The notes under the pieces were generated by a model. It was not told where the DNA came from and did not search any database. It was given only the letters and a program-made list of their open reading frames with translations. From a virus, in UHGV virus genome UHGV-1775856: a DNA stretch of 15,357 bases; one strand, 5' to 3'. The stretch's first letter is position 1, and every line of letters begins with the position of its first letter. The translations under genes were made by a program, and so were the position numbers. This document shows positions 682 to 15,357 of this stretch, piece by piece.

Positions 682-690
682 TTATCCACA
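682..690 (+). promoter_or_regulatory. DnaA box, perfect match to the consensus TTATCCACA, at the left edge of the plasmid origin
   Basis: Exact 9-mer TTATCCACA, immediately upstream of a GATC cluster and iterons, as in P1-type oriR. Confidence 0.55.
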
Positions 691-695
691 GCATA

Positions 696-752
696 GATCC
701 AATAAACAGATCCCAAAGAGAACCTAGGAAGATCCAAAGAAGATCCCGGATC
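696..752. promoter_or_regulatory. cluster of five GATC (Dam) sites in 57 bp, embedded in AGATCC-like heptamer repeats; origin methylation/SeqA region
   Basis: GATC at 696, 709, 731, 742 and 749. P1 oriR is known to hold five Dam sites in heptamer repeats next to DnaA boxes and iterons. Confidence 0.5.
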
Positions 753-793
753 GCTGTAAGCCGCGCCGTTCGTGGCCTGAAACGGGATCAACA

Positions 794-900
794 TTGACTA
801 TACGCGATTTTATGTTGACTGTGTGCGATTTTATGTTGACTGCACGCGATTTATTGTTGACTATACGCGACAGAAACGTTGACTGTACGCGATTTTAGAG
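794..900 (+). repeat. five direct iterons (core TTGACTRYRYGCGAT) at 21-22 bp spacing; RepA binding sites of the origin (incC-like)
   Basis: Copies start at 794, 815, 836, 857 and 879, spaced 21, 21, 21 and 22 bp (two helical turns), directly upstream of repA. Confidence 0.8.
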
Positions 901-973
901 CCTGAATATTCACAGCTGTTGATAACAGTCATCTAAATTAACGCCAGGCCGCGCCACACATGGAGAAACCACG

Positions 974-1858
974 ATGCCGGAAGAAAGTAAAGGCTTCCTT
1001 AGCGTTGAAGAAGTTGCAGGAAATACAGGAGAAATCCACAGCCTGAAGCCCAATAACAACAGCACTATACAACCCATAGCTTTGTTGCGCTTAGGTGTGT
1101 TTGTGCCAACCTTAAAATCTACCAATGTGGCGCTACGTCGCGGATCGTCAGTTACAACAAACACAACGAACGCAACCGAAGAACTATCAAGCCTCAAAAT
1201 TGTTGAGCAGGAAGGCTATGAGGGAATTGAAATTCATGGTCCACGCCTGGATATGGATACTGATTTTAAGGTGTGGGTGGGCATAACCTCCGCGTTGTTT
1301 GACTATGCTCCTGATGATGACGGCATAATCACCCTGCCATTCTCCGAGTTTGCCGATCGATGCGGCTATCCACGTAAGCGCCTTTCAAAGGCGTTCCGTA
1401 AAAGTATTGATGACTCTCTGACACGCATTCAGCAGACAGTTGTCAAATTCCGCTTCCCGGCGGCAAAAGGTCATCTCAATAACATTAACGTCAACTTGTT
1501 GGCATATAGCAGCCTGAATACCGAGCTTGATGTTATCGAGATCCAGCCGCAAAAACAGCTATCTGAACTTTACTATGTTGACTATAAGCGAATCCTGAAG
1601 CTGAAGATGCTGGATAAGCTCGGGCGCAAAGAGACGGCCAAGGTGCTGTATACATTCTTTGAGGCTCTACCCGCCAACCCGGCACCTGTCAGCATTGAGC
1701 GCCTTAGAGCAAGGCTTAATCTCAAATCATCCGTTAGCGTGCAAAATAGCGTTATCAGAAAAGCCATGAAAGATTTGGAAGCTATTGAATATCTTAAATT
1801 TTCAGAGATAAAAAACGGCAGAAAAATCGGCTTCCAGATCCATAAGCGCAATCCATAA
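974..1858 (+). CDS. repA: plasmid replication initiator RepA (P1/RepFIB-like, iteron-binding)
   Basis: 294-aa ORF flanked on both sides by iteron arrays. It contains blocks I recall as conserved in P1-type RepA (QPIALLRLGVFVP, GPRLDMDTDFKVW, C-terminal HKRNP), but the overall sequence and the iterons differ from the P1 19-bp iteron, so this is a divergent allele. Confidence 0.85.
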   Translation: MPEESKGFLSVEEVAGNTGEIHSLKPNNNSTIQPIALLRLGVFVPTLKSTNVALRRGSSVTTNTTNATEELSSLKIVEQEGYEGIEIHGPRLDMDTDFKVWVGITSALFDYAPDDDGIITLPFSEFADRCGYPRKRLSKAFRKSIDDSLTRIQQTVVKFRFPAAKGHLNNINVNLLAYSSLNTELDVIEIQPQKQLSELYYVDYKRILKLKMLDKLGRKETAKVLYTFFEALPANPAPVSIERLRARLNLKSSVSVQNSVIRKAMKDLEAIEYLKFSEIKNGRKIGFQIHKRNP

Positions 1859-1860
1859 TA

Positions 1861-2116
1861 TTGACTATATGCGATAGCGAGAAGTTGACTATAGGCGACA
1901 TTCGTTGACGCTGGTGGATTTTTGCTGGCGTCAATATTCTGCAAGTCGCTATTGAGATGGCTTTTAGGGTCATTTCATCGCGTATAGTCAACGTTTCTCC
2001 CGACAATATCTTACATAGTCGATCTTTGGTGGAGTTAAATCGACTACAGTCAACTTTTGACTGTAGTCACATCGCGCATAGTCAACTATTCAAATTAACC
2101 TTCGCGCATAGTCAAC
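1861..2116. repeat. second iteron field downstream of repA, with copies in both orientations (incA-like copy-control locus)
   Basis: Plus-oriented TTGACT cores at 1861, 1885, 1905 and about 2056; minus-oriented copies (seen as GCGCATAGTCAA or CGTATAGTCAACG) at about 1927, 1981, 2043, 2073 and 2103. Several form inverted pairs. Confidence 0.7.
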
Positions 2117-2150
2117 ATTTGCGCGGTTCTCATCAAGCAGTGGTATTGAT

Positions 2151-2960
2151 ATGCAAGAAGAGAAACAACACTACCTCTACGTTCTGGTGCCAGAGAACGG
2201 AGATACTTTTAAAATCGGCATTTCATGTGGTCCATTGGCACGGTTTAAAGGGCTACAAGTGAGTCCCGATTTTGCGCTTTCACGGGTCTATCGTGGTACA
2301 CGTTTGGCAATGGTTAATCTTGAGCGGGCTTTACACGCAACCTTTTTCCCCTGGAATGCGCCGTGGGAGAAAAGCGTCGGTGGCGGGCATACTGAATGGT
2401 TTACACGAGAGTGTCTTGATAAGGTTTTGGCTCATATCGAATATCTAAATGATATGTGGGGAGGGATTCTCGAGCGCATTAAGTCGAATGATTTACTTCA
2501 GCGTCCAGTAGATGCTGCTTGCTCTTTCGAAAAAGAGCTGGATGTTACTTCTATCGTGACTTTCAAAGATGACGCAGGAATGAGGGACGTGGCTTATGTC
2601 TCCATATCTGGCTATGAACCGGACGCGATCCGCGCTCAATGTGAATTGCTGAAAGCAATGTTTATGCTTCGGACTAAATATCCCTGGGATACAGGGCGGG
2701 TGTGCTTCCCTATGGAAGAGTTAACCGCCACCATTGATTCCCAGCTTTACCACGATAATCCAGAGAAGTTTTTTAGCCTTTTAGCCGGTAATGGGCTTAA
2801 CTGTGTGTCCGGGCTGGGGCGAAGTAGAATCCAACATGCCTCGCTCTTCGGTCCCTTCTTTTACGATCGACACGGGTACTTTGAGGCTGAACTTCCGGCG
2901 CTTACGCGTGCTATAGATACTATCGATTTCGAACGATTATTCGCTGCTCTTAGCAAATAA
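2151..2960 (+). CDS. T5orf172/GIY-YIG-like domain protein, 269 aa; N-terminal nuclease-like domain plus a C-terminal region of about 160 aa of unknown function
   Basis: N-terminus carries the T5orf172/MUG113 signature: YLYVL, KIGIS, R, LH..F, GGHTEWF, in the right order and spacing. The gene starts about 35 bp after the last iteron and ends at a strong terminator. It lies between the replication and partition modules, where P1 (from memory) has no gene. Confidence 0.6.
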   Translation: MQEEKQHYLYVLVPENGDTFKIGISCGPLARFKGLQVSPDFALSRVYRGTRLAMVNLERALHATFFPWNAPWEKSVGGGHTEWFTRECLDKVLAHIEYLNDMWGGILERIKSNDLLQRPVDAACSFEKELDVTSIVTFKDDAGMRDVAYVSISGYEPDAIRAQCELLKAMFMLRTKYPWDTGRVCFPMEELTATIDSQLYHDNPEKFFSLLAGNGLNCVSGLGRSRIQHASLFGPFFYDRHGYFEAELPALTRAIDTIDFERLFAALSK

Positions 2961-2965
2961 CACTG

Positions 2966-2990
2966 ATGCCCCTGAACGGGGCTTTTTTGT
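2966..2990 (+). terminator. rho-independent terminator after the T5orf172-like gene
   Basis: GCCCC (2968-2972), loop TGAAC, GGGGC (2978-2982), then TTTTTT. Confidence 0.7.
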
Positions 2991-3077
2991 GCCTTTCTTG
3001 TAACTCTCAATCGTGCAAAATGAACCAAACATGCAGAGAATGCTATGTACAAGCATCTACGCATACATTATTATTTT

Positions 3078-3113
3078 ATGCAGCATTTTTAATTAAATTC
3101 AAAAATACAGCAT
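3078..3113. promoter_or_regulatory. putative par operon promoter/operator: imperfect 13-bp inverted repeat in an AT-rich leader
   Basis: ATGCAGCATTTTT (3078-3090) and AAAAATACAGCAT (3101-3113) match 11 of 13 as inverted repeats, just upstream of the parA Shine-Dalgarno; ParA autoregulates at such a site in P1. Confidence 0.4.
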
Positions 3114-3128
3114 AAAGGATGACTTTCG

Positions 3129-4325
3129 ATGAGTGATTCCAGCCAGCTTCACAAGGTTGCTCAAAGAGCAAACAGAATGCTCAATGTTCTGACTGAACAA
3201 GTACAGTTGCAAAAGGATGAGCTACACGCGAACGAGTTTTACCAGGTCTATGCGAAAGCGGCACTGGCAAAATTGCCTCTACTGACTCGAGCGAACGTTG
3301 ACTATGCCGTAAGTGAAATGGAAGAAAAGGGTTATGTTTTCGATAAACGCCCTGCTGGCTCTTCAATGAAATATGCGATGTCAATTCAGAACATCATTGA
3401 CATATATGAACATCGCGGAGTGCCAAAATACCGGGATCGCTACAGCGAAGCGTATGTGATTTTCATCTCCAATCTTAAAGGCGGTGTGTCAAAAACTGTA
3501 TCGACGGTTTCTCTGGCGCATGCAATGCGTGCCCACCCTCATCTTCTGATGGAAGATTTAAGGATTCTGGTTATTGACCTTGATCCGCAATCTTCAGCAA
3601 CGATGTTTTTAAGCCATAAACACTCTATTGGTATCGTAAACGCAACATCTGCACAGGCTATGTTGCAGAATGTAAGCCGTGAAGAGCTGTTAGAGGAGTT
3701 TATTGTTCCTTCTGTTGTACCTGGGGTTGACGTTATGCCTGCGTCGATTGACGATGCCTTTATTGCATCCGATTGGAGAGAGCTGTGCAATGAGCATCTA
3801 CCGGGTCAGAACATCCATGCTGTCCTGAAAGAAAATGTGATTGATAAGCTGAAGAGCGATTATGACTTTATCCTCGTTGATAGTGGTCCTCACCTTGACG
3901 CCTTCCTGAAAAATGCTTTGGCCTCGGCCAATATACTGTTTACACCTCTGCCGCCAGCAACTGTCGATTTCCACTCATCGCTTAAATACGTTGCCCGCCT
4001 TCCTGAGTTGGTAAAACTCATTTCGGATGAAGGCTGCGAGTGCCAGCTTGCGACTAACATTGGTTTTATGTCCAAGTTGAGTAACAAGGCAGATCATAAG
4101 TATTGCCATAGCCTGGCTAAAGAAGTGTTCGGTGGGGATATGCTTGATGTCGTCCTCCCTCGCCTTGACGGTTTTGAACGCTGCGGCGAGTCTTTTGACA
4201 CTGTTATTTCAGCTAACCCGGCAACGTATGTTGGTAGTGCTGATGCATTGAAGAACGCGCGAATTGCCGCGGAAGATTTTGCTAAAGCAGTTTTTGACCG
4301 TATTGAATTTATCAGATCTAACTGA
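3129..4325 (+). CDS. parA: partition ATPase ParA (type Ia, with N-terminal DNA-binding extension)
   Basis: 398 aa; deviant Walker A KGGVSKT; length and sequence recognised as P1 ParA-like; followed 16 bp later by parB. Confidence 0.92.
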   Translation: MSDSSQLHKVAQRANRMLNVLTEQVQLQKDELHANEFYQVYAKAALAKLPLLTRANVDYAVSEMEEKGYVFDKRPAGSSMKYAMSIQNIIDIYEHRGVPKYRDRYSEAYVIFISNLKGGVSKTVSTVSLAHAMRAHPHLLMEDLRILVIDLDPQSSATMFLSHKHSIGIVNATSAQAMLQNVSREELLEEFIVPSVVPGVDVMPASIDDAFIASDWRELCNEHLPGQNIHAVLKENVIDKLKSDYDFILVDSGPHLDAFLKNALASANILFTPLPPATVDFHSSLKYVARLPELVKLISDEGCECQLATNIGFMSKLSNKADHKYCHSLAKEVFGGDMLDVVLPRLDGFERCGESFDTVISANPATYVGSADALKNARIAAEDFAKAVFDRIEFIRSN

Positions 4326-4341
4326 GGAGTAAGAAACCCCC

Positions 4342-5343
4342 ATGTCAAAGAAAAACAGACCAACAATTGGGCGAACCCTTAATCCTTCAATATTAAGCGG
4401 ATTTGATAGTTCTTCAGCCTCTGGCGATCGAGTCGAGCAGGTATTCAAGTTATCAACTGGTCGCCAGGCCACATTTATTGAAGAGGTAATACCTCCGAAC
4501 CAGGTAGAAAGCGATACCTTTGTTGATCAGCATAACAACGGGCGTGACCAGGCATCTCTTACGCCAAAATCATTAAAAAGTATCCGAAGCACTATTAAGC
4601 ATCAGCAATTTTACCCTGCAATAGGTGTTAGACGGGCTACAGGGAAAATTGAAATTTTGGATGGTTCCCGGCGTCGAGCTTCTGCCATCTTAGAGAACGT
4701 AGGGTTGCGGGTTTTAGTCACGGACCAGGAGATCAGCGTTCAGGAAGCGCAAAATTTAGCGAAAGACGTTCAGACAGCATTGCAGCACAGCATTCGAGAA
4801 ATAGGTCTGCGTTTGATGCGAATGAAAAATGATGGGATGAGTCAGAAGGATATTGCAGCCAAAGAAGGGCTGTCTCAGGCGAAGGTCACGCGTGCTCTCC
4901 AGGCAGCGAGTGCTCCGGAAGAATTAGTCGCCCTTTTCCCTGTTCAGTCGGAATTAACCTTTTCGGACTACAAAACGCTTTGTGCTGTTGGCGACGAAAT
5001 GGGGAACAAGAATTTAGAGTTTGATCAGCTTATTCAAAACATATCCCCGGAAATAAACGACATCTTATCCATTGAAGAAATGGCCGAAGATGAAGTTAAA
5101 AATAAAATCCTGCGCTTGATAACAAAGGAAGCCTCACTACTCACGGATAAAGGTTCTAAAGATAAGTCCGTAGTTACTGAATTATGGAAATTTGAGGACA
5201 AGGATCGCTTTGCAAGGAAGCGCGTGAAAGGCCGTGCATTTTCTTATGAGTTTAATCGACTTTCAAAAGAGCTACAGGAAGAACTCGACAGGATGATTGG
5301 GCATATCCTTAGAAAGAGCCTCGATAAAAAGCCGAAGCCTTAA
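4342..5343 (+). CDS. parB: partition centromere-binding protein ParB
   Basis: 333 aa; sequence recognised as P1 ParB-like; immediately followed by a parS-like site. Confidence 0.92.
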   Translation: MSKKNRPTIGRTLNPSILSGFDSSSASGDRVEQVFKLSTGRQATFIEEVIPPNQVESDTFVDQHNNGRDQASLTPKSLKSIRSTIKHQQFYPAIGVRRATGKIEILDGSRRRASAILENVGLRVLVTDQEISVQEAQNLAKDVQTALQHSIREIGLRLMRMKNDGMSQKDIAAKEGLSQAKVTRALQAASAPEELVALFPVQSELTFSDYKTLCAVGDEMGNKNLEFDQLIQNISPEINDILSIEEMAEDEVKNKILRLITKEASLLTDKGSKDKSVVTELWKFEDKDRFARKRVKGRAFSYEFNRLSKELQEELDRMIGHILRKSLDKKPKP

Positions 5344-5344
5344 A

Positions 5345-5432
5345 CTTTCGCCATTCAAATTTCACTATTAACCAACTGTTTTTAAAGTAAATCCATCTAA
5401 AATTTCAAGGTGAAATCGCCACGATTTCACCT
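5345..5432. other. parS: parS centromere: box A (ATTTCAC) and box B (TCGCCA) motifs flanking an AT-rich, IHF-site-like centre
   Basis: Box B TCGCCA at 5348-5353 and 5416-5421; box A ATTTCAC at 5359-5365 and 5424-5430, plus an inverted ATTTCA at 5411-5416; the arrangement matches published P1 parS as I recall it. Confidence 0.8.
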
Positions 5433-5488
5433 TGGATTTTACCTTCCTCCCCTACTCCCGAAAAAAATAAAAAAATTGCTTGTCACGA

Positions 5489-5517
5489 GAAAGTCAACAA
5501 GTGACTTTCAATAAAAT
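5489..5517 (+). promoter_or_regulatory. candidate promoter for the structural operon: perfect 8-bp inverted repeat GAAAGTCA-ACAAG-TGACTTTC followed by a -10-like ATAAAAT
   Basis: Arms at 5489-5496 and 5502-5509, then AATAAAAT at 5510-5517. P1 late promoters are reported to carry an inverted repeat centred near -22 plus a -10 element; I do not recall the exact consensus. Confidence 0.35.
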
Positions 5518-5568
5518 CTCTTCCGAAAAGGGATTCACACAAGTGCCTTGTGTTTAAGGAAGAGTAAA

Positions 5569-7275
5569 TTGAGTAACTTACGCGAATACCAGAATCGTAT
5601 TGCAGATATCGCAAAACGCTCTAAAGCTGTGCTTGGCTGGGCAAGCACTGCGCAGTTCGGTACTGATAACCAATTCATTAAAGATGATGCCGCGCGTGCC
5701 GCATCTATCCTTGAAGCTGCACGTAAAGACCCGGTTTTTGCGGGTATCTCTGATAATGCCACCGCTCAAATCGCTACAGCGTGGGCAAGTGCACTGGCTG
5801 ACTACGCCGCAGCACATAAATCTATGCCGCGTCCGGAAATTCTGGCCTCCTGCCACCAGACGCTGGAAAACTGCCTGATTGAGTCCACCCGCAATAGCAT
5901 GGATGCCACTAATAAAGCGATGCTGGAATCCGTCGCAGCAGAGATGATGAGCGTTTCTGACGGTGTTATGCGTCTGCCTTTATTCCTCGCGATGATCCTG
6001 CCTGTTCAGTTGGGGGCAGCTACCGCTGATGCGTGTACCTTCATTCCGGTTACGCGTGACCAGTCCGACATCTATGAAGTCTTTAACGTGGCAGGTTCCT
6101 CTTTTGGTTCTTATGCTGCTGGTGATGTTCTGGACATGCAATCCGTCGGTGTGTACAGCCAGTTACGCCGCCGCTATGTGCTGGTGGCAAGCTCCGATGG
6201 CACCAGCAAAACCGCAACCTTCAAGATGGAAGACTTCGAAGGCCAGAATGTACCAATCCGAAAAGGTCGCACTAATATCTACGTTAACCGTATTAAGTCT
6301 GTTGTTGATAACGGTTCCGGCAGCCTACTTCACTCGTTTACTAATGCTGCTGGTGAGCAAATCACTGTTACCTGCTCTCTGAACTACAACATTGGTCAGA
6401 TTGCCCTGTCGTTCTCCAAAGCGCCGGATAAAGGCACTGAGATCGCAATTGAGACGGAAATCAATATTGAAGCCGCTCCTGAGCTGATCCCGCTGATCAA
6501 CCACGAAATGAAGAAATACACCCTGTTCCCAAGCCAGTTCGTTATCGCGGCTGAGCACACGGTACAGGCGGCGTATGAAGCACAGCGTGAATTTGGTCTG
6601 GACCTGGGTTCCCTACAGTTCCGCACCCTGAAGGAATACCTGTCTCATGAACAGGATATGCTGCGTCTTCGCATCATGATCTGGCGTACTCTTGCGACCG
6701 ACACCTTTGACATCGCTCTGCCGGTTAACCAGTCCTTTGATGTATGGGCAACCATCATTCGTGGCAAATTCCAGACTGTATATCGCGACATTATTGAGCG
6801 CGTTAAATCTTCTGGTGCGATGGGGATGTTTGCTGGTGCTGATGCAGCATCTTTCTTCAAACAGTTGCCGAAGGATTTCTTCCAGCCAGCCGAAGACTAT
6901 ATCCAGACTCCGTATGTTCACTACATCGGTACCCTGTTCGGTAACGTGAAAGTGTACGAAGTACCTGCTGGTATTTGTAAGAACTTAACGACAGAGAACA
7001 TTCAGTTCAGCTCGATGGATGTGCTGTGCTACGTCCGTGATGAAAATCCGGGTAAAGCAGGCTTCGTGACTGGTGATGCTGTCCCGGCTATCCCGTTCCA
7101 GCATCCGACCACTCCGGCGCTGGTCAACCGTACCACACTGTGGGGTTCGGCTATCAACGATATGCACCCACGCAACGGCGCTGATTACTTCACTCGTGTA
7201 ACGCTGACAATGGCCAAAAAAGGCGGGCTTAACTTCATTAGCGGCGACACGATTGATGCCGGTGACTCTGAGTAA
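5569..7275 (+). CDS. large virion structural protein, possibly the major head protein (P1 gene 23 position); start assigned to TTG at 5569
   Basis: Long ORF (track 5548-7275) with no in-frame ATG near the 5' end; TTG at 5569 sits 6 nt after AAGGAAG. It is first in an operon with a sheath-like gene and is followed by a GC hairpin. The head assignment rests on position only. Confidence 0.7.
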   Translation: MSNLREYQNRIADIAKRSKAVLGWASTAQFGTDNQFIKDDAARAASILEAARKDPVFAGISDNATAQIATAWASALADYAAAHKSMPRPEILASCHQTLENCLIESTRNSMDATNKAMLESVAAEMMSVSDGVMRLPLFLAMILPVQLGAATADACTFIPVTRDQSDIYEVFNVAGSSFGSYAAGDVLDMQSVGVYSQLRRRYVLVASSDGTSKTATFKMEDFEGQNVPIRKGRTNIYVNRIKSVVDNGSGSLLHSFTNAAGEQITVTCSLNYNIGQIALSFSKAPDKGTEIAIETEINIEAAPELIPLINHEMKKYTLFPSQFVIAAEHTVQAAYEAQREFGLDLGSLQFRTLKEYLSHEQDMLRLRIMIWRTLATDTFDIALPVNQSFDVWATIIRGKFQTVYRDIIERVKSSGAMGMFAGADAASFFKQLPKDFFQPAEDYIQTPYVHYIGTLFGNVKVYEVPAGICKNLTTENIQFSSMDVLCYVRDENPGKAGFVTGDAVPAIPFQHPTTPALVNRTTLWGSAINDMHPRNGADYFTRVTLTMAKKGGLNFISGDTIDAGDSE

Positions 7276-7301
7276 TCAGGGGAAGTTCTCCGTTTAACAT
7301 A

Positions 7302-7320
7302 GCGCCCCCGTGCGGGGCGC
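7302..7320 (+). other. GC-rich hairpin with no U-tract between the 575-aa and 529-aa genes; possible partial terminator or mRNA stabiliser
   Basis: GCGCCCC (7302-7308), loop CGTGC, GGGGCGC (7314-7320). Confidence 0.35.
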
Positions 7321-7335
7321 ATAACAGGGAAAGTT

Positions 7336-8925
7336 ATGTCTCAATATTCAATTCAACAGTCATTAGGTAATGCATCCGGCGTCGCGGTTAGCCCGATCAA
7401 TGCCGATGCGACGTTATCTACCGGTGTTGCATTAAATAGCAGCTTGTGGGCTGGTATTGGCGTATTTGCGCGTGGCAAGCCGTTTACTGTTCTTGCGGTT
7501 ACTGAGTCCAATTACGAAGATGTTCTCGGCGAACCGCTGAAGCCGTCTTCCGGCTCACAGTTCGAACCAATTCGCCATGTATACGAAGCTATTCAGCAAA
7601 CATCTGGTTATGTTGTTCGCGCTGTTCCGGATGATGCGAAGTTCCCGATTATTATGTTCGATGAATCAGGCGAACCGGCTTACAGTGCGTTGCCATACGG
7701 TTCTGAAATTGAACTTGATAGTGGCGAAGCCTTTGCTATCTACGTTGATGATGGTGATCCGTGTATTTCACCTACCCGTGAGTTAACCATCGAAACGGCA
7801 ACAGCGGACAGCGCGGGTAATGAACGCTTCCTCTTAAAACTGACCCAGACGACTTCGCTCGGCGTGGTAACGACCCTGGAGACACACACTGTGTCTTTGG
7901 CGGAAGAAGCGAAAGATGACATGGGCCGCTTGTGTTATCTGCCTACGGCTCTGGAAGCCCGTTCTAAATATCTGCGCGCGGTTGTTAATGAAGAGCTGAT
8001 TTCGACAGCGAAAGTAACAAACAAAAAATCGTTGGCGTTCACTGGCGGTACCAACGGCGATCAGTCGAAAATCTCAACCGCTGCGTACCTGCGTGCGGTG
8101 AAAGTGCTGAACAATGCGCCGTACATGTACACCGTTGTTCTCGGCCTGGGGTGCTATGACAATGCGGCGATCACTGCGTTAGGTAATATCTGTTCTGATC
8201 GCCTGATTGATGGCTTCTTTGATGTCAAACCGACATTGACGTACACGGAAGCGATCTCTGCTGTTGAAGATACCGGTTTACTTGGTACCGATTATGTAAG
8301 CTGTGCTGTCTATCATTTCCCGTTCTCCTGCAAAGACAAATGGACCCAATCCCGCGTGGTCTTCGGTCTGTCTGGCGCGGCGTATGCGGCGAAAGCTCGT
8401 GGCGTCAAGAAAAACTCCGATGTCGGCGGTTGGCATTACTCACCGGCTGGTGAAGAACGTGCCGTCATAGCTCGTGCATCACTTCAGCCGCTGTATCCTG
8501 AAGACACCCCGGACGAAGAAGCTATGGTCAAGGGCCGACTCAATAAAGTATCTGTAGGTACTTCGGGCCAGATGATCATCGATGATGCTTTAACTTGCTG
8601 CACGCAGGACAACTATCTGCATTTCCAGCACGTCCCATCCCTGATGAACGCAATCAGCCGTTTCTTTGTCCAGTTAGCCCGACAGATGAAGCATAACCCG
8701 GACGGCATTACTGAGTCTGGCCTGACTAAAGGGATGACCAAACTTTTGGATCGCTTTGTCGCCTCCGGCGCTCTGGTGGCTCCTCGTGATCCTGATGCTG
8801 ACGGTACAGAACCGTATGTGCTGAAAGTTACGCAGGCGGAATTCGATAAATGGGAAGTAGTCTGGGCCTGCTGCCCGACTGGCGTAGCCCGTCGTATCCA
8901 GGGCGTACCGCTGCTTATTAAGTAA
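7336..8925 (+). CDS. contractile tail sheath-like protein
   Basis: 529 aa; AGGGAAAG Shine-Dalgarno. The segment AAYAAKARGVKKNSDVGGWHYSPAG resembles the recalled P2 FI sheath segment (ARALGLRAKIDQEQGWHKT), and the C-terminal region has sheath-like hydrophobic periodicity; the size fits a sheath subunit. Confidence 0.7.
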   Translation: MSQYSIQQSLGNASGVAVSPINADATLSTGVALNSSLWAGIGVFARGKPFTVLAVTESNYEDVLGEPLKPSSGSQFEPIRHVYEAIQQTSGYVVRAVPDDAKFPIIMFDESGEPAYSALPYGSEIELDSGEAFAIYVDDGDPCISPTRELTIETATADSAGNERFLLKLTQTTSLGVVTTLETHTVSLAEEAKDDMGRLCYLPTALEARSKYLRAVVNEELISTAKVTNKKSLAFTGGTNGDQSKISTAAYLRAVKVLNNAPYMYTVVLGLGCYDNAAITALGNICSDRLIDGFFDVKPTLTYTEAISAVEDTGLLGTDYVSCAVYHFPFSCKDKWTQSRVVFGLSGAAYAAKARGVKKNSDVGGWHYSPAGEERAVIARASLQPLYPEDTPDEEAMVKGRLNKVSVGTSGQMIIDDALTCCTQDNYLHFQHVPSLMNAISRFFVQLARQMKHNPDGITESGLTKGMTKLLDRFVASGALVAPRDPDADGTEPYVLKVTQAEFDKWEVVWACCPTGVARRIQGVPLLIK

Positions 8926-8934
8926 GGAAATACA

Positions 8935-9750
8935 ATGAGCAAAAACTTTTTTCAATCCGGGGCATTTTTGGGGAATGGACTGTCTCGTTTCGCTTTGAAC
9001 TCTGATCCTGTGCAGTTGATGGAGTCTGCCCGAGCAAGCGCCGAACCGACAACAGATCCGGTTATTAATAATAATCCGAAACCGGCGGCACAGACTAACG
9101 ATAACGTTCCATCTGCCACGGCTCCTGAGCAAATCCTGGAAGGGAAAGACGGTAAAGAATGGACCGTCGAACAGGCGCACCAGATGATTCTGGAAGCTGC
9201 AAATCGAAGTGCTATGCAGAATGCGTTGAGTGATGCGGCCGACGCCGTTTTCGCCTGGGCTGATAGCGGTGATCTGACTTTCGACTCCCTTGATGGTTTC
9301 GTTCAGGCTATCGCTGGTATCTCTGATGACGACGACTCCGAAGTTACAGAAGAACAGGACGATGCCTATAACGAAGCATGGGCAAATGTTGCTGACTTCC
9401 TCGCAGCATGCGGTGTAGATGATGACCTGATCGAAGCACTGGCTGACGATGAAGACGACGACGCAGCTGCTGATGTTGGTGCCTCTATCGCTGGTTTAGA
9501 TAGCGACGACCGTGACGAACTGGAAGCGGCGTTTGTTGTTGCTGGCACTTCTGATGAAATGCTGACTGAAGCATTTAAGAAGGTTGTTCGTAACGGTGAG
9601 ATCAAACTCATCCGTAAACGCCTGCGTAAAAAACGTCTGACTGCGGCTCAAAAATCGGCGCTGAAAAAAGCGCGTCGTAAAGCCCAGACCGGCGCGGCAA
9701 AACTGGCCCGCAAAAAGTCAATGAAACTGCGCCGTAAGCGCCTCGGCTAA
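8935..9750 (+). CDS. highly acidic protein with a Lys/Arg-rich C-terminal tail, function unknown
   Basis: 271 aa; Shine-Dalgarno AAGGAAA; Asp/Glu-rich central region (for example DDDDSEVTEEQDD and ADDEDDDAAAD), and a last ~50 aa that are almost all K/R/A. Confidence 0.7.
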   Translation: MSKNFFQSGAFLGNGLSRFALNSDPVQLMESARASAEPTTDPVINNNPKPAAQTNDNVPSATAPEQILEGKDGKEWTVEQAHQMILEAANRSAMQNALSDAADAVFAWADSGDLTFDSLDGFVQAIAGISDDDDSEVTEEQDDAYNEAWANVADFLAACGVDDDLIEALADDEDDDAAADVGASIAGLDSDDRDELEAAFVVAGTSDEMLTEAFKKVVRNGEIKLIRKRLRKKRLTAAQKSALKKARRKAQTGAAKLARKKSMKLRRKRLG

Positions 9751-9785
9751 AGGAGGAGGCCGGAGAACTCCGGCCTTTAACTTGA

Positions 9786-10367
9786 ATGGCACCTATACCT
9801 TATGGGGTTTACAGCCAGGCTGACGGTGTATCGCCATATCTGAAAGTTACTTTAACGAACTCTCAGTACCAGGTTACCGGATATATCAGCCAGGGAGCGG
9901 CAATGAACATGGCCCAGAATTGGGAAGCGCCGTTTACCGGTATGTCCATGGGATCTGTTGCTGGTGCCTTCAGTGGTTTTGCGCAGGTTGGTACTGAAAC
10001 AACGTCGGTTGCCCGTTGGAACAGCTTAATGGTTTGGGAAGGGGGAACACCGCCGACTTTCACGCTGCCAGTAACTTTCATCGCTTTGTTTGACCCATTC
10101 ACGGAGGTTTCAGGAGCTATCGCCGCATTGTCAGCGATGATTAGCCCGGAACTTAAAGATGCCAGTATTGGTGGTCGAATCCCGGAGCGTGTGACGCTAA
10201 ACATTGGTCGCCGGATCAACATCATTGATGTCGCTATCCAGGACATAAGTTTCGATCTCGATGCGCCCAGGGACAGCAATGGGCATTTCCTGAAAAACAC
10301 CGTCAACCTCCAGTTGACCGGTTCTTCGATATATAACAGCTCCGATATTGTTCGGGCGTTCCAGTAA
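9786..10367 (+). CDS. hypothetical protein in the tail/baseplate-associated module
   Basis: 193 aa, co-directional and tightly packed in the structural operon; the nearest Shine-Dalgarno (AGGAGGAGG, 9751-9759) is separated from the ATG by a hairpin. Confidence 0.65.
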   Translation: MAPIPYGVYSQADGVSPYLKVTLTNSQYQVTGYISQGAAMNMAQNWEAPFTGMSMGSVAGAFSGFAQVGTETTSVARWNSLMVWEGGTPPTFTLPVTFIALFDPFTEVSGAIAALSAMISPELKDASIGGRIPERVTLNIGRRINIIDVAIQDISFDLDAPRDSNGHFLKNTVNLQLTGSSIYNSSDIVRAFQ

Positions 10368-10378
10368 AAGGATTTTAT

Positions 10379-10888
10379 ATGGGGCACAATAATACTAAGG
10401 GAAACCGTAAATTTATTAAGGGCCGCTATACTGCCAACGCGGCCAAAGGCGAACGACTGGTATCTTCTGAATTCCAGCTCACTTTTGCAGGCCATGAAGA
10501 TATCAGCGTACTGGTTCGCACGTCGCAAATTCCTGAAATGACCCGCGAGGATGTGGAGGACTATGGTCCGAATGGTGTGAAGTTCAACCAGCACGGTCCA
10601 ATTCGAAACTCTGGGGAAATCCAGGTCCAGTGCGTGGAGACTATCGAAGGCGATATTCTTCAGTTCATTAAAGATCGCATTGCGGCGAAGGACTATGTTG
10701 ATATCACGATGGCTGCGACCCCTGAATCCAAATCTTCCGGGGTTAACGCTGTGACAAAAGCTGCTACAACAATTGAAATGTTGGACTGCAAAATCTACAG
10801 TGATGCAATCGACTTTAGTACCGAAGATGTGACTGCTGCTGTGCGCCCGTCACTTCGTATCGTCTACAACTGGATTGAGTGGGATTAA
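10379..10888 (+). CDS. hypothetical protein, possible tail tube or baseplate component
   Basis: 169 aa; AAGGA Shine-Dalgarno 6 nt before the ATG; last gene before a strong terminator; the size is typical of contractile-tail tube or baseplate subunits. Confidence 0.7.
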   Translation: MGHNNTKGNRKFIKGRYTANAAKGERLVSSEFQLTFAGHEDISVLVRTSQIPEMTREDVEDYGPNGVKFNQHGPIRNSGEIQVQCVETIEGDILQFIKDRIAAKDYVDITMAATPESKSSGVNAVTKAATTIEMLDCKIYSDAIDFSTEDVTAAVRPSLRIVYNWIEWD

Positions 10889-10906
10889 GAGTCATCCCTT
10901 GTATTT

Positions 10907-10931
10907 TAAAGCTCCTTCGGGAGCTTTTTTT
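10907..10931 (+). terminator. rho-independent terminator closing the structural operon
   Basis: AAAGCTCC (10908-10915), loop TTCG, GGAGCTTT, then a run of seven T. Confidence 0.75.
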
Positions 10932-10991
10932 ATAACTATTTTATATAAACATGCATCGATAACATTGTCTGGAGTTTTATGTTAGATTATT

Positions 10992-11008
10992 AATGTTCTA
11001 ATAAACTA
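10992..11008 (+). promoter_or_regulatory. C1-repressor-operator-like site upstream of the 210-aa gene
   Basis: AATGTTCTAATAAACTA matches the P1 C1 operator consensus ATTGCTCTAATAAATTT at 13 of 17 positions, including the CTAATAAA core, inside an AT-rich promoter-like region. Confidence 0.35.
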
Positions 11009-11059
11009 CAATTATTGAGGTAGATGTTTGTGCCTGTACTGTTAAAGGGGGACTCTAAA

Positions 11060-11656
11060 ATGGCTGTGATTCCAATGTCGTACTCCCCGGGTACTGTCGC
11101 TCGTCGATTTTCGATCCTGGACGGAGTTACCATCCAGGGTGTGCTTTACCAGGTTATATGGGATTCCAAAACCCCATTTGCAGCTGTAATAGAGGCTGCG
11201 CCTTCTATTATCGATGGTGATATGCGCCATAAGGTTGTCGCTACTCTTGAACTTCAACGTCGCCCGCAGCTTGAAGGCGTACTGGTAAGGAAGTTCTGGG
11301 AGGATAGCGATGTTGCCCAGATTGAAGGTATCGTGGTTGATGGAACCGTCCGGGATGTCGGTTTAGCTACTTTTGTTTACGAAACCGTAGCCTCAAAAGC
11401 TGGTGTTGTTTTGCTCAGTGATAATGAGCAATACGAAGGTGGAAAAGCTCTTTGGCAACACATCGCCCGTCGCTCTTCCGAGCTAAAAGTGTTTATCCTT
11501 GACACCGATGCCGCTCAGTATTACCCGTTTGACGGCGAACGTGTTTGCTATGACGGGGTAAGTATTCCTGAATCCGAGATATGGAGTGAACACCCAGATC
11601 GAAGTAAGCATGGGGTTGTTCTGGTCGCTGAATCCATAATTGGAAATGCGGCATAG
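11060..11656 (+). CDS. hypothetical protein, about 200 aa, function unknown; likely C1-controlled
   Basis: ORF track 11024-11656. ATG at 11060 has AAGGGGG about 9 nt upstream; the ATG at 11024 has GAGGT only 3 nt upstream. It has its own promoter region after the operon terminator. Confidence 0.65.
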   Translation: MAVIPMSYSPGTVARRFSILDGVTIQGVLYQVIWDSKTPFAAVIEAAPSIIDGDMRHKVVATLELQRRPQLEGVLVRKFWEDSDVAQIEGIVVDGTVRDVGLATFVYETVASKAGVVLLSDNEQYEGGKALWQHIARRSSELKVFILDTDAAQYYPFDGERVCYDGVSIPESEIWSEHPDRSKHGVVLVAESIIGNAA

Positions 11657-11838
11657 CAGTAAAAAATTCCTTGCTCCTTAAAAGGGGAGAGGGTTAATCT
11701 ACGTATGCTAAGCATAGAGATGGCCTCAGATTAATGTTAAGCGTCTTGCAGGACGCGTAATGTTATCTGGGGCGTTCTTCTATCTGCTTTTCGGGTAATG
11801 CCTGAAGCAGATAGCCTCAAGCACCCGTAACGATTGTA

Positions 11839-12165
11839 TCAATGTCTGGCTTTTTTTCTATAGAAATCACCAGGAAGGGTGAATATCCACATCAGAAGAA
11901 ATGTTGCAGCAAACATGATCCCTAATGGCCAGACCGCGCCAAAGAAAATCCATACTAAGATCTCCTCTGTTCGTTCTTTGCGGTCGATATCGACAAGCAT
12001 TCTTCGGCTGATCATGTATACACAGAAGCCAATACAAACATATCCTGCAAAAGCGATCGCTAACTGTAAAAAATCAGATTGCCTCTCCGACCTCAAACTG
12101 AAAACGCCAGGTGACTCCAGATTAGAGCAATCTATCACCCTCTGAATCCTGCCGGTATACCCCAT
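11839..12165 (-). CDS. possible small membrane protein with two hydrophobic helices, overlapping the 3' end of repL
   Basis: Two hydrophobic segments (LAIAFAGYVCIGFCVYMI and ILVWIFFGAVWPLGIMFAATFLLMWIF); no convincing Shine-Dalgarno at any candidate start (12165, 12015 or 12000); the position matches where P1 has the small rlf genes downstream of repL, by recollection. Confidence 0.3.
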   Translation of the reverse strand: MGYTGRIQRVIDCSNLESPGVFSLRSERQSDFLQLAIAFAGYVCIGFCVYMISRRMLVDIDRKERTEEILVWIFFGAVWPLGIMFAATFLLMWIFTLPGDFYRKKARH

Positions 12166-12980
12166 TGTTCGTTATCTTTATTTTTGGCTAAAACCGCATT
12201 AAGAGCTTCGTTTACCGTCATGCAATGCGGCAGATTATCGAAGTTTGATACACCGCCAATATCAGGAGAACGCTTGTTCTTCAGGTAAGCATATTTCCGC
12301 GCTGCCGCCTCTACTTTCTGCTTGAACTCATGTTTTTGAGCGCGTTTTTTGGATAACCGCAGATTGTCAGCCTTTGTTTTTGCCTCAGCGATCCATGAAG
12401 TCAATTTTTTGAGTCTGGTCGTTCCGGCACCGCCGGAAACTGATCTTTTTGTTTTTTTAACTTGTGACTTCTTATTCTTTATTGCCACGTCATCCTGACA
12501 GGGGGAGGGGGTATCATTTTGACATGGGGGTGTGGATAAAAAATTAAATAAAGCCAATGTCTTAGCGAGAACAGCTTTAACCTTGGTTGCCGCTGAAGAG
12601 ATCTTTAATTTGCTTTCAATCAGCGCATTTTTGGCTTGTTGTGCGAAGGCCAAAAAGGATGGTGTAAACCGGTACAGGTTAGCGCGACGTTCACGGTGAT
12701 CGCCGATAACAATCTCTACAGACAGAATTCCTTTGTTTACAGCTTCACGGAATGCACGAACGACGGTTGATTGGCTATAACCAGTTTCTGCCGCGATCAG
12801 GCGGTGAGGCTTGTGAATGAAGTATTCACTGGTTGTTGCCGCTAGATTTGCACATTGCGACAGGATATGCCCGGCGCTACGGGATAGACCGGAGTGTGTT
12901 ACAAAGCAGGCCAATTCATAGCCAGAAAAAGTAAAATCGCTCATCGTTATACAGCTCAGGAAAGTGACTTTAGCCAGCAT
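12135..12980 (-). CDS. repL: lytic replication protein RepL
   Basis: 281 aa, directly downstream of kilA in the same orientation and under a C1 operator, as in the P1 lytic replicon; the RepL length matches my recollection; the N-terminal third looks like a winged-helix domain. Confidence 0.8.
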   Translation of the reverse strand: MLAKVTFLSCITMSDFTFSGYELACFVTHSGLSRSAGHILSQCANLAATTSEYFIHKPHRLIAAETGYSQSTVVRAFREAVNKGILSVEIVIGDHRERRANLYRFTPSFLAFAQQAKNALIESKLKISSAATKVKAVLAKTLALFNFLSTPPCQNDTPSPCQDDVAIKNKKSQVKKTKRSVSGGAGTTRLKKLTSWIAEAKTKADNLRLSKKRAQKHEFKQKVEAAARKYAYLKNKRSPDIGGVSNFDNLPHCMTVNEALNAVLAKNKDNEQWGIPAGFRG

Positions 12981-13009
12981 TACAATGCTGGTGGTTCTTA
13001 CTACGTCTG

Positions 13010-13810
13010 TTAGCGCGTTGCCGCGACAGGTACCAGCACACCAGCATCAAGCAATCGCTTCATCAGCCACTGCTGACCTTTGCCGGTTATACGAGTCGTG
13101 AAAGAAATCCTGCTTCCATTGCTTGTATCGATCACGGTTTCTTTAAGGGTGAAATACCCACGGGATATGTATTCTTGTTTGGGGACGTTCCTGCGTTCAC
13201 CGGTTGCGATCAGAATTCCGTTATCACGCAACCAGGTGAAGAGATAGTTTTGGCCCAGGCCGAGCACTTTGGCATAGTTGCCGATTAGAACCCCGCTGGC
13301 GGTAGCAACGCGTTCGGCGAATTCGACTTTAGGTGCATCCATCAGCATTTTTTGCTCCAGCCGTTGCTTTTGCTCTGCCAGGTCAGCAGCCAAACGGAGA
13401 GCTTCTGGGAGGCTCTTCGGAATAGCAGGTTGTAATCTTCCGGCTCGATAGTCGATAAATGTCTGGTTTACCTTCAGCCGAAACGCGGGAGAAATCCAGC
13501 CTGCGTACTCCACTGCGAGCAATTCATGGGCAAAAGTGCCGCCGCCACGGCCTTCGAACGAAACTATGCAATTCTGCATAGTTTCTTTTTCAAGCTCTTC
13601 GATGAGCTGTTTGGCTGACAGCGTTCTTAGCCATTGAGCTGGCGCTTTATGGGCACCGAGTCCGCTCGCTCTGTGTAGAGCATTAAGGTTGTAACGGCCA
13701 GCGCGGTCGGTCGTAATTTCAACACCACAAATAACGGGCAGAGTGGTTGAAGGATCGACATTTTGATGAAGGTTTGATATATTCATATCCGCATTGAATG
13801 TTTGTTGCAT
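13010..13810 (-). CDS. kilA: KilA (KilA-N domain at the N-terminus, KilAC domain at the C-terminus)
   Basis: 266 aa, the P1 KilA length as I recall it; GGAG Shine-Dalgarno 6 nt before the ATG at 13810; the C-terminal ~130 aa are clearly paralogous to the C-terminus of the upstream ant gene. Confidence 0.85.
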   Translation of the reverse strand: MQQTFNADMNISNLHQNVDPSTTLPVICGVEITTDRAGRYNLNALHRASGLGAHKAPAQWLRTLSAKQLIEELEKETMQNCIVSFEGRGGGTFAHELLAVEYAGWISPAFRLKVNQTFIDYRAGRLQPAIPKSLPEALRLAADLAEQKQRLEQKMLMDAPKVEFAERVATASGVLIGNYAKVLGLGQNYLFTWLRDNGILIATGERRNVPKQEYISRGYFTLKETVIDTSNGSRISFTTRITGKGQQWLMKRLLDAGVLVPVAATR

Positions 13811-13879
13811 TTTTTCTCCAAATTTGCATCAACCTTCAATCACCAGCTCGAAATGGTGATTCTTTGCACTTAGAAAACG

Positions 13880-13896
13880 AAATTTATTAGAGCAAA
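13880..13896 (-). promoter_or_regulatory. C1 repressor operator (Op53-like) in the kilA-repL promoter region
   Basis: The minus strand reads TTTGCTCTAATAAATTT, a 16 of 17 match to the P1 C1 operator consensus ATTGCTCTAATAAATTT, about 70 bp upstream of the kilA start. Three GATC sites lie just upstream at 13909-13931. Confidence 0.65.
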
Positions 13897-13941
13897 TTTT
13901 TCTGATTCGATCCAGATCGGGTTGGACGATCTGCTCAGAAA

Positions 13942-13968
13942 CCTGCCAGTTTGCTGGCAGGTTTTTTT
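13942..13968 (+). terminator. hairpin plus T-run in the ant-kilA intergenic region; strong intrinsic terminator in plus-strand orientation, weaker on the minus strand
   Basis: CCTGCCAG (13942-13949), loop TTTG, CTGGCAGG, then TTTTTTT (13962-13968). On the minus strand, which is the direction of ant transcription, only UUUCU follows the stem. Confidence 0.5.
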
Positions 13969-13974
13969 CTTTTG

Positions 13975-15018
13975 TTAACCTATTGCTACTGGTTTTAACA
14001 AACCAGCATCAAGTAGCTTGCGAGTTAACCACTGCTGGCCTTTACCCGTTAATTGGGGCGTCAGCCGTATCTGGTAGCCATTTTCATCATCCAGCACCAC
14101 TTCTTTCACCGTGAAATACCCGGCGTTGATGTACTGTTGGCGCGGTACGTTTTTGCGCGCACCAAAAGCCATGAGAATGCCGTTCTGGCGCAACCATGAG
14201 AAAAGGGCGTTTTGCTTAAGTCCAACGACCTTTGCAAAGTTCCCGATCAGGATTCCATTGGCCACTGATACCCGGTCGGCAAAATCGACTTTAGGGGCTG
14301 CGGCCACCAGCTGTTGTTCCAGCTGCATTTTCTGTTCTGCCAACTCGGCAGCCAGGCGTAGAGCTTCTGGTAATGTTTGGGGGATCGATGGGGTAGGGGA
14401 GTTTGCCTGCTGCAATTCTTCCAGTTTGTCGATCAGCGAACGGCGGACGGCTTTTGATTCGCGTGCGGCGACTCGCAGGGCTTGTTTGTAGGTCATGGTT
14501 ATGACAACCATAGGCGTACCGCCACCTGGCGGCACGGTTGCACTTTTTGTGTAACCGTCCTCACCTTCTAATTCGTCGAGTATTTTTTCGATGAATTTGT
14601 TGTTCCGAACCTCTGGTTCCCCACATAACTTACGCGCTTCATTGACCATCTTTAACAGTGTCAGGCTGTCGATTGTGTCTCCGGTGTTGGGGATGATATT
14701 CACGGCTGGTGCTGGCGTAGCTGACGTAACAGGTGCTGTTTTTTCAACATTCAAATTATTACCGGTCATTCTATGTGCCTCCTTTCTCATTTCTGCTGCC
14801 ACTGTTGCGTAACGTAGACGTCCTTGTTCAATCAAATAATCCCTGATCTCGGCTATCAGTAGCTTGTTGATCACAGCCTTATCTGTTCGGGTATAAAAAC
14901 GTCTGGTTATCATGAAATAGTTGGCAATTGCGCCGGGGATCTCCCGTGTCGGCATACAGGCAGTATGCAGGGCGATCGCTTCGGCTATGTCATTACGGGT
15001 GACGAGAGGTTTTTTCAT
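13975..15018 (-). CDS. ant: antirepressor Ant (AntA/Rha-like middle region plus C-terminal KilAC domain)
   Basis: 347 aa; the start ATG overlaps the icd stop in an ATGA arrangement; GGGGGG Shine-Dalgarno; the C-terminal KilAC domain is paralogous to kilA; internal in-frame Met codons could give a shorter Ant2-like product. Confidence 0.8.
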   Translation of the reverse strand: MKKPLVTRNDIAEAIALHTACMPTREIPGAIANYFMITRRFYTRTDKAVINKLLIAEIRDYLIEQGRLRYATVAAEMRKEAHRMTGNNLNVEKTAPVTSATPAPAVNIIPNTGDTIDSLTLLKMVNEARKLCGEPEVRNNKFIEKILDELEGEDGYTKSATVPPGGGTPMVVITMTYKQALRVAARESKAVRRSLIDKLEELQQANSPTPSIPQTLPEALRLAAELAEQKMQLEQQLVAAAPKVDFADRVSVANGILIGNFAKVVGLKQNALFSWLRQNGILMAFGARKNVPRQQYINAGYFTVKEVVLDDENGYQIRLTPQLTGKGQQWLTRKLLDAGLLKPVAIG

Positions 15019-15236
15019 AAACCCCCCTGAACGTCGGCAGAGAAGGGGAGGCTCCAGTAACTAAGTGGGTTGCGGGAGTTAGTTGAAAAACGGGCAGTAA
15101 AAATGCAGGGGCCGTCAGGCAATTGAGAGCGTGCTTCGTCTTCTGTTGCTGCGATAACGAAGTGATAGTGGTGTTTTTTACAGGAATAGAAACGCCAGAT
15201 GAATTCTTGGCGTGCGCAAGGATTGGCATTAACCAT
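15015..15236 (-). CDS. icd: Icd-like small protein (immI operon), translationally coupled to ant
   Basis: 73-aa ORF with GAGG Shine-Dalgarno; its TGA stop overlaps the ant ATG; the position and 73-aa size match P1 icd as I recall it. The upstream c4 RNA region is cut off by adapter sequence. Confidence 0.55.
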   Translation of the reverse strand: MVNANPCARQEFIWRFYSCKKHHYHFVIAATEDEARSQLPDGPCIFTARFSTNSRNPLSYWSLPFSADVQGGL

Positions 15237-15287
15237 AGTTACGGCCTCACAATCAGGTTTAACAACCTGCTACCCGCTGTCAAACAG

Positions 15288-15357
15288 CTGTCTCTTATAC
15301 ACATCTCCGAGCCCACGAGACCGGAGCCTATCTCGTATGCCGTCTTCTGCTTGAAAA
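15288..15357 (+). other. Illumina Nextera adapter read-through (sequencing artefact, not biological)
   Basis: CTGTCTCTTATACACATCT (Tn5 mosaic end, 15288-15306), then CCGAGCCCACGAGAC, an 8-nt index-like CGGAGCCT (15322-15329), then ATCTCGTATGCCGTCTTCTGCTTG (P7), then AAAA. Confidence 0.93.

Follow-up and report, generated by a model that had tools for sequence, protein, structure and literature searches.

How two neighbouring genes come to share one half of their coding sequence and not the other, and whether such a repeat destabilises the locus that contains it, are the questions raised by ant and kilA in the UHGV virus genome UHGV-1775856. The analysed stretch of this genome comprises 15,357 nucleotides (nt) and is hereafter called the window; the locus in question resembles that of phage P1. 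In a first-pass annotation of the window, the two genes were described as carrying paralogous C-terminal KilAC domains on unrelated N-terminal domains and as flanking an operator of the C1 repressor. The arrangement was called a clear case of domain shuffling, and deletions or recombination were suggested as possible consequences of the repeated DNA. We followed up these statements by examining directly how far the two genes are homologous, how their products are built from domains, how closely the locus agrees with P1, where its regulatory motifs lie and how old the duplication is, and by looking for ant-kilA fusions and for natural exchange of domains. The locus is best read as encoding two modular proteins side by side: Ant1/Ant2, composed of an extension found only in Ant1, a middle domain and KilAC, and KilA, composed of KilA-N and KilAC.

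The shared KilAC module

The kilA gene (13010-13810, minus strand) encodes 266 amino acids (aa) and is the first gene of the C1-controlled kilA-repL operon. The ant1 gene (13975-15018, minus strand) encodes the long form of the antirepressor, 347 aa; both genes are defined by open reading frames (ORFs) and by the annotation of P1. The short form, Ant2 (264 aa; ant2, 13975-14769, minus strand), is transferred from P1, and the codon for its in-frame internal start, Met84 of Ant1 (window position 14769), is present. A protein cluster identical to Ant1 (P0320) has 895 members.

In a BLASTP comparison under composition-based statistics, KilA and Ant1 were aligned with E = 3e-65 and 49% identity over 202 aa. 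The strong block of this alignment pairs KilA 128-266 with Ant1 210-347, where 88 of 138 residues (64%) are identical and a single gap of one residue is found. Both proteins belong to the Pfam family PF03374 (ANT/KilAC), with scores of 112.2 bits for KilA and 106.4 bits for Ant1 and a gathering score of 25.3 bits. The KilAC module of Ant spans aa 210-347 (13975-14391, minus strand; Pfam core aa 234-336, E = 1.2e-30), and that of KilA spans aa 128-266 (13010-13429, minus strand; Pfam core aa 152-254, E = 2e-32), the latter being outlined also by an AlphaFold2 (AF2) model. At the DNA level the block has 63% identity, with 70, 80 and 41% at codon positions 1, 2 and 3, respectively. All exact runs shared by ant and kilA are in the same register, and the longest has 12 nt. 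Thus, the C-terminal homology that had been claimed for protein and DNA is well founded.

We estimated the nonsynonymous divergence (dN) of the KilAC pair as ~0.3, and the synonymous divergence (dS) as ~1.7 by two methods, while dS was undefined by the Nei-Gojobori method; synonymous divergence is therefore saturated. The duplication behind the ant/kilA KilAC pair is, as judged from these values, old. In the AF2 model of KilA (predicted local distance difference test score, pLDDT, 84), the KilAC module is predicted to form a long helix, followed by a helix pair resembling a helix-turn-helix, a beta wing, a beta hairpin and a helix. Foldseek matches of this KilAC model to winged-helix proteins in the Protein Data Bank (PDB) were weak and non-significant.

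The N-terminal parts of KilA and Ant

The front half of KilA is a KilA-N domain at aa 27-123 (13442-13732, minus strand; PF04383, E = 3.7e-21, 75.4 bits with a gathering score of 23.8 bits), modelled by AF2 with pLDDT above 90. It also gave a weak Foldseek match to the APSES domain of Mbp1 (1bm8, probability 0.82). Ant1 has no match to KilA-N in Pfam even at E ≤ 10. Its front part begins with the Ant1-only extension, aa 1-83 (14770-15018, minus strand), for which no Pfam match was found at E ≤ 10 and four helices were predicted by AF2 with low confidence. The middle domain follows at aa ~111-205 (14404-14688, minus strand) and is matched by phrog_1726 with E = 4e-21. Its predicted order of elements is beta-alpha-alpha-beta-beta-alpha-alpha (pLDDT 75-86); outside this domain the AF2 model of Ant1 is poor (mean pLDDT 51).

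The front half of Ant had been labelled "AntA/Rha-like", and this part of the first-pass annotation did not hold. A Pfam search at E ≤ 10 with Ant1 and its segments gave no match for the front half, with none of AntA, Rha and Bro-N detected. For AntA/AntB (PF08346), neither Ant1 nor any of its segments matched at that threshold, and for Rha (PF09669, Phage_pRha) the front half does not attain the gathering score of 29.9 bits. In NCBIfam, no model matching Ant1 or KilA was found. An exhaustive search at E ≤ 1e-3 yielded 325 representative clusters of the middle-domain family. In these relatives the domain is typically N-terminal, in proteins of 230-260 aa, which is the architecture of Ant2.

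We then have the domain scan of 102 proteins, i.e., Ant1 and 101 relatives. KilAC was present in 36 of them, and the others had T5orf172/MUG113 or nothing recognisable in its place; AntA was not among the top families. Eight of the 102 proteins matched Rha. A Rha-like middle domain was considered on account of these eight and rejected, because the strongest matches inspected lie in a separate domain: in the best-matching protein (P0195), and in P0103 as well, the Rha match sits in an extra domain upstream of the Ant-type domain. The Ant-type domain of another relative (P0146) gave a sub-threshold match to Rha with E = 0.043, and the consensus of the middle-domain family matched Rha with E = 0.0018 and 19.2 bits, also below the cutoff. 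Judging by sequence comparison, the Ant middle domain is a genuine, distinct family that has no Pfam model. It follows for annotation practice that P1 Ant should carry the "AntA/Rha-like" label only after a profile or structure test.

The statement that the two N-terminal halves are unrelated was upheld at the level of sequence detection. When the families of the Ant middle domain and of KilA-N were compared by hhalign, the probability was 1% (P = 0.055). It should be noted that the Ant alignment was shallow, and that the word-indexed homologue searches gave mostly fragments and near-identical sequences. A sequence profile search of PDB with the Ant family alignment found nothing at E < 0.3, and fold searches with the Ant model, which is poor outside the middle domain, gave no significant matches.

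A separate observation concerns variation within the middle domain. Window positions 14506-14559 (Ant aa 154-171) form an allelic patch of 18 residues, DGYTKSATVPPGGGTPMV in the window versus FYTKSAKSHGTRAGRSFE in P1. Nearly all of its bases are changed, residue 167 being unchanged, and most of the 3% divergence from P1 stems from this patch. It is located in the loop between both beta strands of the middle domain, and several alternative forms of this loop occur among relatives.

Exchange of the middle domain in P1-like plasmids

Domain shuffling as the mode of evolution was seen directly in natural variants of the locus. For example, plasmid pM505-b (NZ_AP023222, positions 3576-4667 of the examined stretch) encodes, at the same immI position, an Ant of 363 aa in which the Pfam domain ORF6N (E = 8e-17) replaces the middle domain next to a KilAC module 100% identical to that of the window Ant. 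The DNA homology between pM505-b and the window ends exactly at the KilAC boundary, at query position 1486 (window ~14385). The Ant1 extension is conserved in Ant variants of the ORF6N type, with approximately two-thirds of residues identical as counted by eye in a pairwise alignment. DNA of the ORF6N type was found with at least 95% identity in 63 plasmid records. Relatives of KilA-N, for their part, were found both with and without KilAC.

Some P1-like plasmids have a second cassette, which lies between pacB (terminase) and c1/coi, as in CP057976 (2063-3531 of the examined stretch), and comprises an ash-like ORF, an icd-like gene and an ORF6N-KilAC antirepressor. The KilAC module of this cassette has ~93% protein and ~86% DNA identity to the KilAC module of Ant, compared to 59-64% identity to that of KilA. 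Since the KilAC of Ant is ~93% identical to that of the cassette and only 64% identical to that of KilA, KilA is not its closest relative. Going by these identities, the c1-adjacent cassette is much better suited than kilA as a recombination partner of ant. The KilAC boundary is a real natural recombination joint, used between copies that are much more alike than those of ant and kilA.

The ORF6N-KilAC variants of pM505-b and of the CP057976 cassette share with the window an Ant1-type extension, an upstream icd and a KilAC module 93-100% identical to that of the window Ant. They differ from it in having Pfam ORF6N in the middle position, and some of them are present as a second copy between pacB and c1. 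We also observed that the c1-adjacent cassette is often truncated or interrupted by insertion sequences; truncated copies lie at 2491-3177 and 2491-2823 of two other plasmid stretches.

Possible full-length paralogy and possible recombination between the repeats

A different origin of the gene pair deserves consideration, namely that Ant2 and KilA are collinear paralogues over their entire length, produced by an ancient tandem duplication, with N-terminal domains that share one diverged fold and with no shuffling involved. The genes are adjacent and co-oriented, and their products are nearly equal in length (264 and 266 aa). In the AF2 models both proteins have the order beta-alpha-alpha-beta-beta-alpha-alpha, long helix, KilAC, but a shared order of secondary structure is weak evidence in small alpha/beta DNA-binding domains, and structural searches gave no link of the Ant middle domain to KilA-N/APSES. 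The BLASTP alignment runs in register upstream of the strong block (KilA 67-121 with Ant 144-203, including the motifs ELE.E and GGG), and the best hhalign segment, with the P value given above, is in the same register; the hhalign probability, however, is just 1%. The plasmid comparisons also speak against this origin. The KilAC module of Ant is closer to that of an ORF6N-KilAC gene than to that of KilA, the middle domain is exchangeable at the KilAC boundary, and the middle-domain family is also fused to unrelated C-terminal domains. Taking both sides together, we consider full-length paralogy decidedly unlikely.

The related proposition that the Ant middle domain and KilA-N are divergent versions of one beta-alpha-alpha-beta-beta-alpha-alpha DNA-binding fold is unlikely, too. 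If it were true, the paralogy of Ant2 and KilA would extend over their full length, KilA would plausibly act as a further protein of the antirepressor type, this one controlled by C1, and the diverse N-terminal domains found with KilAC would all fall into one superfamily. Our preferred reading of the locus remains that of a common KilAC module joined to different front ends.

Within this modular reading, the KilAC segments could still act as an active direct repeat that yields ant-kilA fusions, deletions with loss of KilA-N and P53/Op53, or gene conversion. The two segments form direct repeats at a distance of 965 bp and share one reading register, and P1-like elements are clearly mosaic in this region. 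The signature of a fusion was looked for with a query in which the repL-side flank (12700-13009) was joined to the Ant middle-domain region (14420-14720). The two halves are 1410 bp apart in the normal locus, where they are found as separate places, and would be 445 bp apart after the deletion, where they are found as one place; a fusion was defined as one place covering at least 80% of the query. An ant-kilA deletion fusion was found in 0 of 512 plasmid records and in 0 of 517 E. coli replicon records (514 genomes), and the signature was absent from a spread sample of 669 plasmid matches. Efficient RecA-dependent recombination in E. coli needs a minimum of ~25 nt, a value reported by Shen and Huang in 1986. 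With 63% identity, a longest exact run (12 nt) shorter than this minimum and no fusions in the records searched, the repeat is therefore not a practical recombination substrate. It should be noted that the deletion would also take away the only C1-controlled promoter of repL. An active repeat is thus highly improbable, and the suggested role of the repeated DNA in deletions or recombination found no support: its two copies have diverged too far to put the stability of the locus at risk. Finally, the notion that the KilAC similarity is an artefact of composition or low complexity, or is restricted to short motifs, can be dismissed outright, as its sole support is the helical Ala/Glu/Gln-rich segment LPEALRLAAELAEQK, whereas the pairwise alignment, which the first-pass annotation had proposed as a check for low complexity, is unbroken over 138 residues apart from the single one-residue gap, its significance was obtained under composition-based statistics, and each protein independently matches PF03374 above the threshold.

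The regulatory spacer between ant and kilA

The two genes are separated by a spacer of 164 bp (13811-13974). On the minus strand, positions 13880-13896 hold the C1 operator OrepL (formerly Op53), TTTGCTCTAATAAATTT, which deviates from the consensus used, ATTGCTCTAATAAATTT, by one mismatch, is located where P1 has its protein_bind feature and is identical to the P1 sequence. This is the only operator match in the window at one mismatch (0.07 expected by chance), and no second C1 operator was found in the window at up to three mismatches. The promoter PkilA (formerly P53; 13886-13914, minus strand), with -10 element TCTAAT and -35 element TGGATC, is transferred from the P1 annotation and overlaps the operator and one Dam site. 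The three GATC (Dam) sites of the spacer, at 13909-13912, 13915-13918 and 13928-13931, correspond to Dam sites 3, 2 and 1, respectively, of the P1 kilA regulatory region.

Two further elements face the opposite way. The antisense promoter PaskilA (formerly P53as; 13755-13783, plus strand), TCGACA-17-TATATT, agrees with the consensus at 10 of 12 positions, has an extended TG and is annotated in P1. The mapped antisense start of P1 falls at window ~13791, 20 nt inside the 5' end of kilA. A canonical intrinsic terminator with a 13-bp stem and a T-rich tail is found at 13937-13976 on the plus strand. Read on this strand, its hairpin (13937-13966) has a folding energy of -19.9 kcal/mol (z = -4.5) and is followed by U7CUUUUGUU. 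The minus-strand reading has -18.1 kcal/mol and is followed by UUUCUG, which is a poor U-tract; termination of ant transcripts by this hairpin would therefore be weak at best. The predicted antisense RNA would have ~180 nt, would cross the kilA ribosome-binding region, P53 and Op53, and would end just before the ant stop codon. The plus-strand orientation of the terminator is understandable because the hairpin would end this antisense transcript. An antisense RNA of ~180 nt was reportedly observed by Heisig et al. in 1989, in agreement with the predicted length. The Op53-type operator, the plus-strand terminator and the three GATC sites reported earlier for the spacer all coincide with annotated features of P1.

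Two observations on variation of the spacer can be added. The dinucleotide TT at 13906-13907, which is CC in P1, is the sole difference of the spacer from P1. It is located outside the operator, in the stretch of P53 that separates the -10 from the -35 element, directly beside the Dam site in the latter. The E. albertii plasmid NZ_CP034163 (1912-2551 of the examined stretch) has an insertion of ~480 bp between kilA and ant, on the downstream side of the region with the terminator hairpin, and the insertion is also present in NZ_CP126910 and NZ_CP117602. It has no obvious long ORF, and a locus tag is skipped there in the gene table.

Relation of the locus to phage P1

The minus strand of window positions 12135-15236 corresponds to the icd-ant1/ant2-kilA-repL region of phage P1. 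Megablast of region 12900-15100 retrieved the P1 records AF234172, NC_005856 and X15639 with 96.9% identity and 100% query coverage, P1-like phages with 99.5% identity and one P1-like plasmid with 99.9% identity. Positions 1-15290 of the window are collinear with P1-like phages, and all features annotated for this stretch in the P1 record AF234172 could be transferred onto the window. The gene identities ant and kilA given in the first-pass annotation are confirmed by this comparison, the matching P1 genes being annotated as ant1 and kilA.

Downstream of kilA and in the same operon lies repL (12135-12980, minus strand; ORF and P1 annotation), the lytic replication initiator gene, which contains oriL. 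Upstream of ant1 lies icd (15015-15236, minus strand; NCBIfam NF033153, E = 5e-14, and P1 annotation), a cell-division inhibitor gene that is translationally coupled to ant1; the icd stop codon and the ATG of ant1 share the sequence ATGA at 15015-15018. The order icd-ant-kilA-repL, the nested in-frame ant2 start and the icd/ant1 ATGA overlap are all found as in P1. The same is true of the spacer architecture, with the C1 operator over the -10 element of the kilA promoter, three Dam sites, the antisense promoter and the terminator.

Comparison with the immI/lytic-replicon junction of P1 (AF234172/NC_005856; X15639), in which c4-icd-ant1/ant2 are followed by Op53-P53-kilA-repL, thus reveals the same gene order, orientation, ORF lengths (347, 264, 266 and 281 aa) and spacer length, with the operator, both promoters P53 and P53as, the Dam sites and the terminator in common. 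The differences are few: KilA differs from that of P1 at two residues, Ant differs at 22 residues, 17 of which are inside the allelic patch, two bases are changed in the spacer of P53, and the window departs from the rlfA region of P1 downstream of repL. These data already exclude that the window is something other than P1-like, and the locus is very probably an ordinary, well-characterised immI/lytic-replicon junction of a P1-like phage-plasmid. The protein identity to P1 of 94-99% is the basis for inferring the biochemical and genetic properties of P1 here. By this transfer, the Ant1/Ant2 complex would bind and inactivate C1, and KilA would be lethal when expressed; for P1 itself, the inactivation of C1 by Ant1/Ant2 and the lethality of KilA are reportedly described in work of Riedel et al. 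in 1993 and of Hansen in 1989.

Several observations concern the neighbourhood and the ends of the locus. A few database entries (P0317-P0321 and P0346) contain a protein of 418-420 aa, "Icd-like", in which Icd is fused in frame with an Ant1 that is 100% or 96% identical to that of the window. This suggests that in some P1-like elements the icd stop codon has been lost, or that the protein was annotated across the ATGA overlap. The break with the rlfA region of P1 occurs at ~12100-12135 and falls within the operator Orlf (formerly Op55) of P1, leaving just the half GATTAGAGCAAT. At the other end, P1 homology stops at 15290, and approximately the last 70 bases of the window (15288-15357) are read-through of an Illumina Nextera adapter, with the layout CTGTCTCTTATACACATCT-CCGAGCCCACGAGAC-CGGAGCCT(index)-ATCTCGTATGCCGTCTTCTGCTTG-AAAA. 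The window is therefore probably a contig of a short-read assembly with an artefactual end. Some records of unrelated phages (e.g., of Listeria and Streptococcus) gave short matches as well, probably because they contain the same contaminant.

Discussion

The picture that emerges is one in which KilAC would be an old, mobile effector or interaction domain placed on interchangeable specificity domains, the partners being KilA-N, Bro-N, AntA/B, Rha, ORF6N and the middle domain of P1 Ant. The two KilAC copies of P1 diverged long ago and now belong to separately regulated transcription units, with ant controlled by the c4 antisense RNA and by translational coupling to icd, and with kilA-repL under C1 repression at Op53/P53. 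The spacer would insulate and regulate both units. The C1 operator and one Dam site overlap with P53, the antisense RNA of ~180 nt would start from the convergent promoter P53as inside kilA and run across P53, and the plus-strand terminator would stop this RNA before ant.

The first-pass annotation treated the arrangement as a fresh observation, which it is not. KilAC was defined on the C-terminus of P1 KilA by Iyer, Koonin and Aravind (2002), as cited in PMC5944126 and bioRxiv 10.1101/2024.01.05.574328, and these papers also present KilAC as a mobile module on varied N-terminal DNA-binding domains. The ant/kilA pair is already known as the founding, or type, example of the PF03374 family in phage P1. 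Compared to the network of Pfam PF03374 and KilA-N/Bro-N shuffling (Iyer, Koonin and Aravind, Genome Biol 2002, as cited in PMC5944126, PMC9043618 and bioRxiv 10.1101/2024.01.05.574328), the locus has the same design of one C-terminal module with varied N-terminal domains, and it is from KilA that KilA-N and KilA-C took their names. Both proteins of the window are members of PF03374 above its threshold. Nothing here is new in kind; the difference is that the partner in P1 Ant is a domain family without a Pfam model.

Published systems point to autonomous activity of KilAC. The KilA-C domain of Gp07 of the S. aureus phage phi11 alone causes filamentation of E. coli (PMC5944126). CreP of A. baylyi, a stand-alone KilAC protein, arrests division and weakly co-precipitates FtsZ (bioRxiv 10.1101/2024.01.05.574328). 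In AriS of Listeria the KilAC domain inhibits the SOS (DNA damage) response and the N-terminal domain regulates phage genes; N-terminal domains of this type alternate among AntA/B, Bro-N and Rha (PMC9043618). AriS (AntA/AntB with KilAC), Gp07 (Bro-N with KilAC) and CreP (KilAC alone) thus resemble Ant and KilA in having a C-terminal KilAC with its own activity, joined in AriS and Gp07 to an exchangeable N-terminal domain. They differ in their N-terminal domains, hosts and KilAC activities (SOS inhibition in one case; filamentation and weak association with FtsZ in the others). The view best supported, by analogy with this literature, is that KilAC would be the shared effector or interaction module and that the N-terminal parts would give the target. 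PMC8201110 adds that KilA has been considered a second antirepressor (Lobocka, personal communication).

Several points weigh against this modular interpretation as far as function and regulation are concerned. The putative role of KilAC in P1 Ant and KilA is suggested by analogy, and the activities published for KilAC, which belong to distant phages, are not alike, being a block of division in some cases and inhibition of the SOS response in another. The predicted structure of Ant1 is poor outside the middle domain, and the fold searches made with it were without significant matches. The predicted antisense RNA and the promoter assignments are carried over from the P1 annotation.

For a standard phage-plasmid of the P1 type, the meaning of the ant/kilA repeat is slight beyond correct annotation. 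The locus is truly plastic in two other respects: the middle domain of Ant is exchanged, and a further ant-like cassette occurs beside c1. Either could alter the specificity of immunity in those P1-like plasmids through which resistance genes spread.

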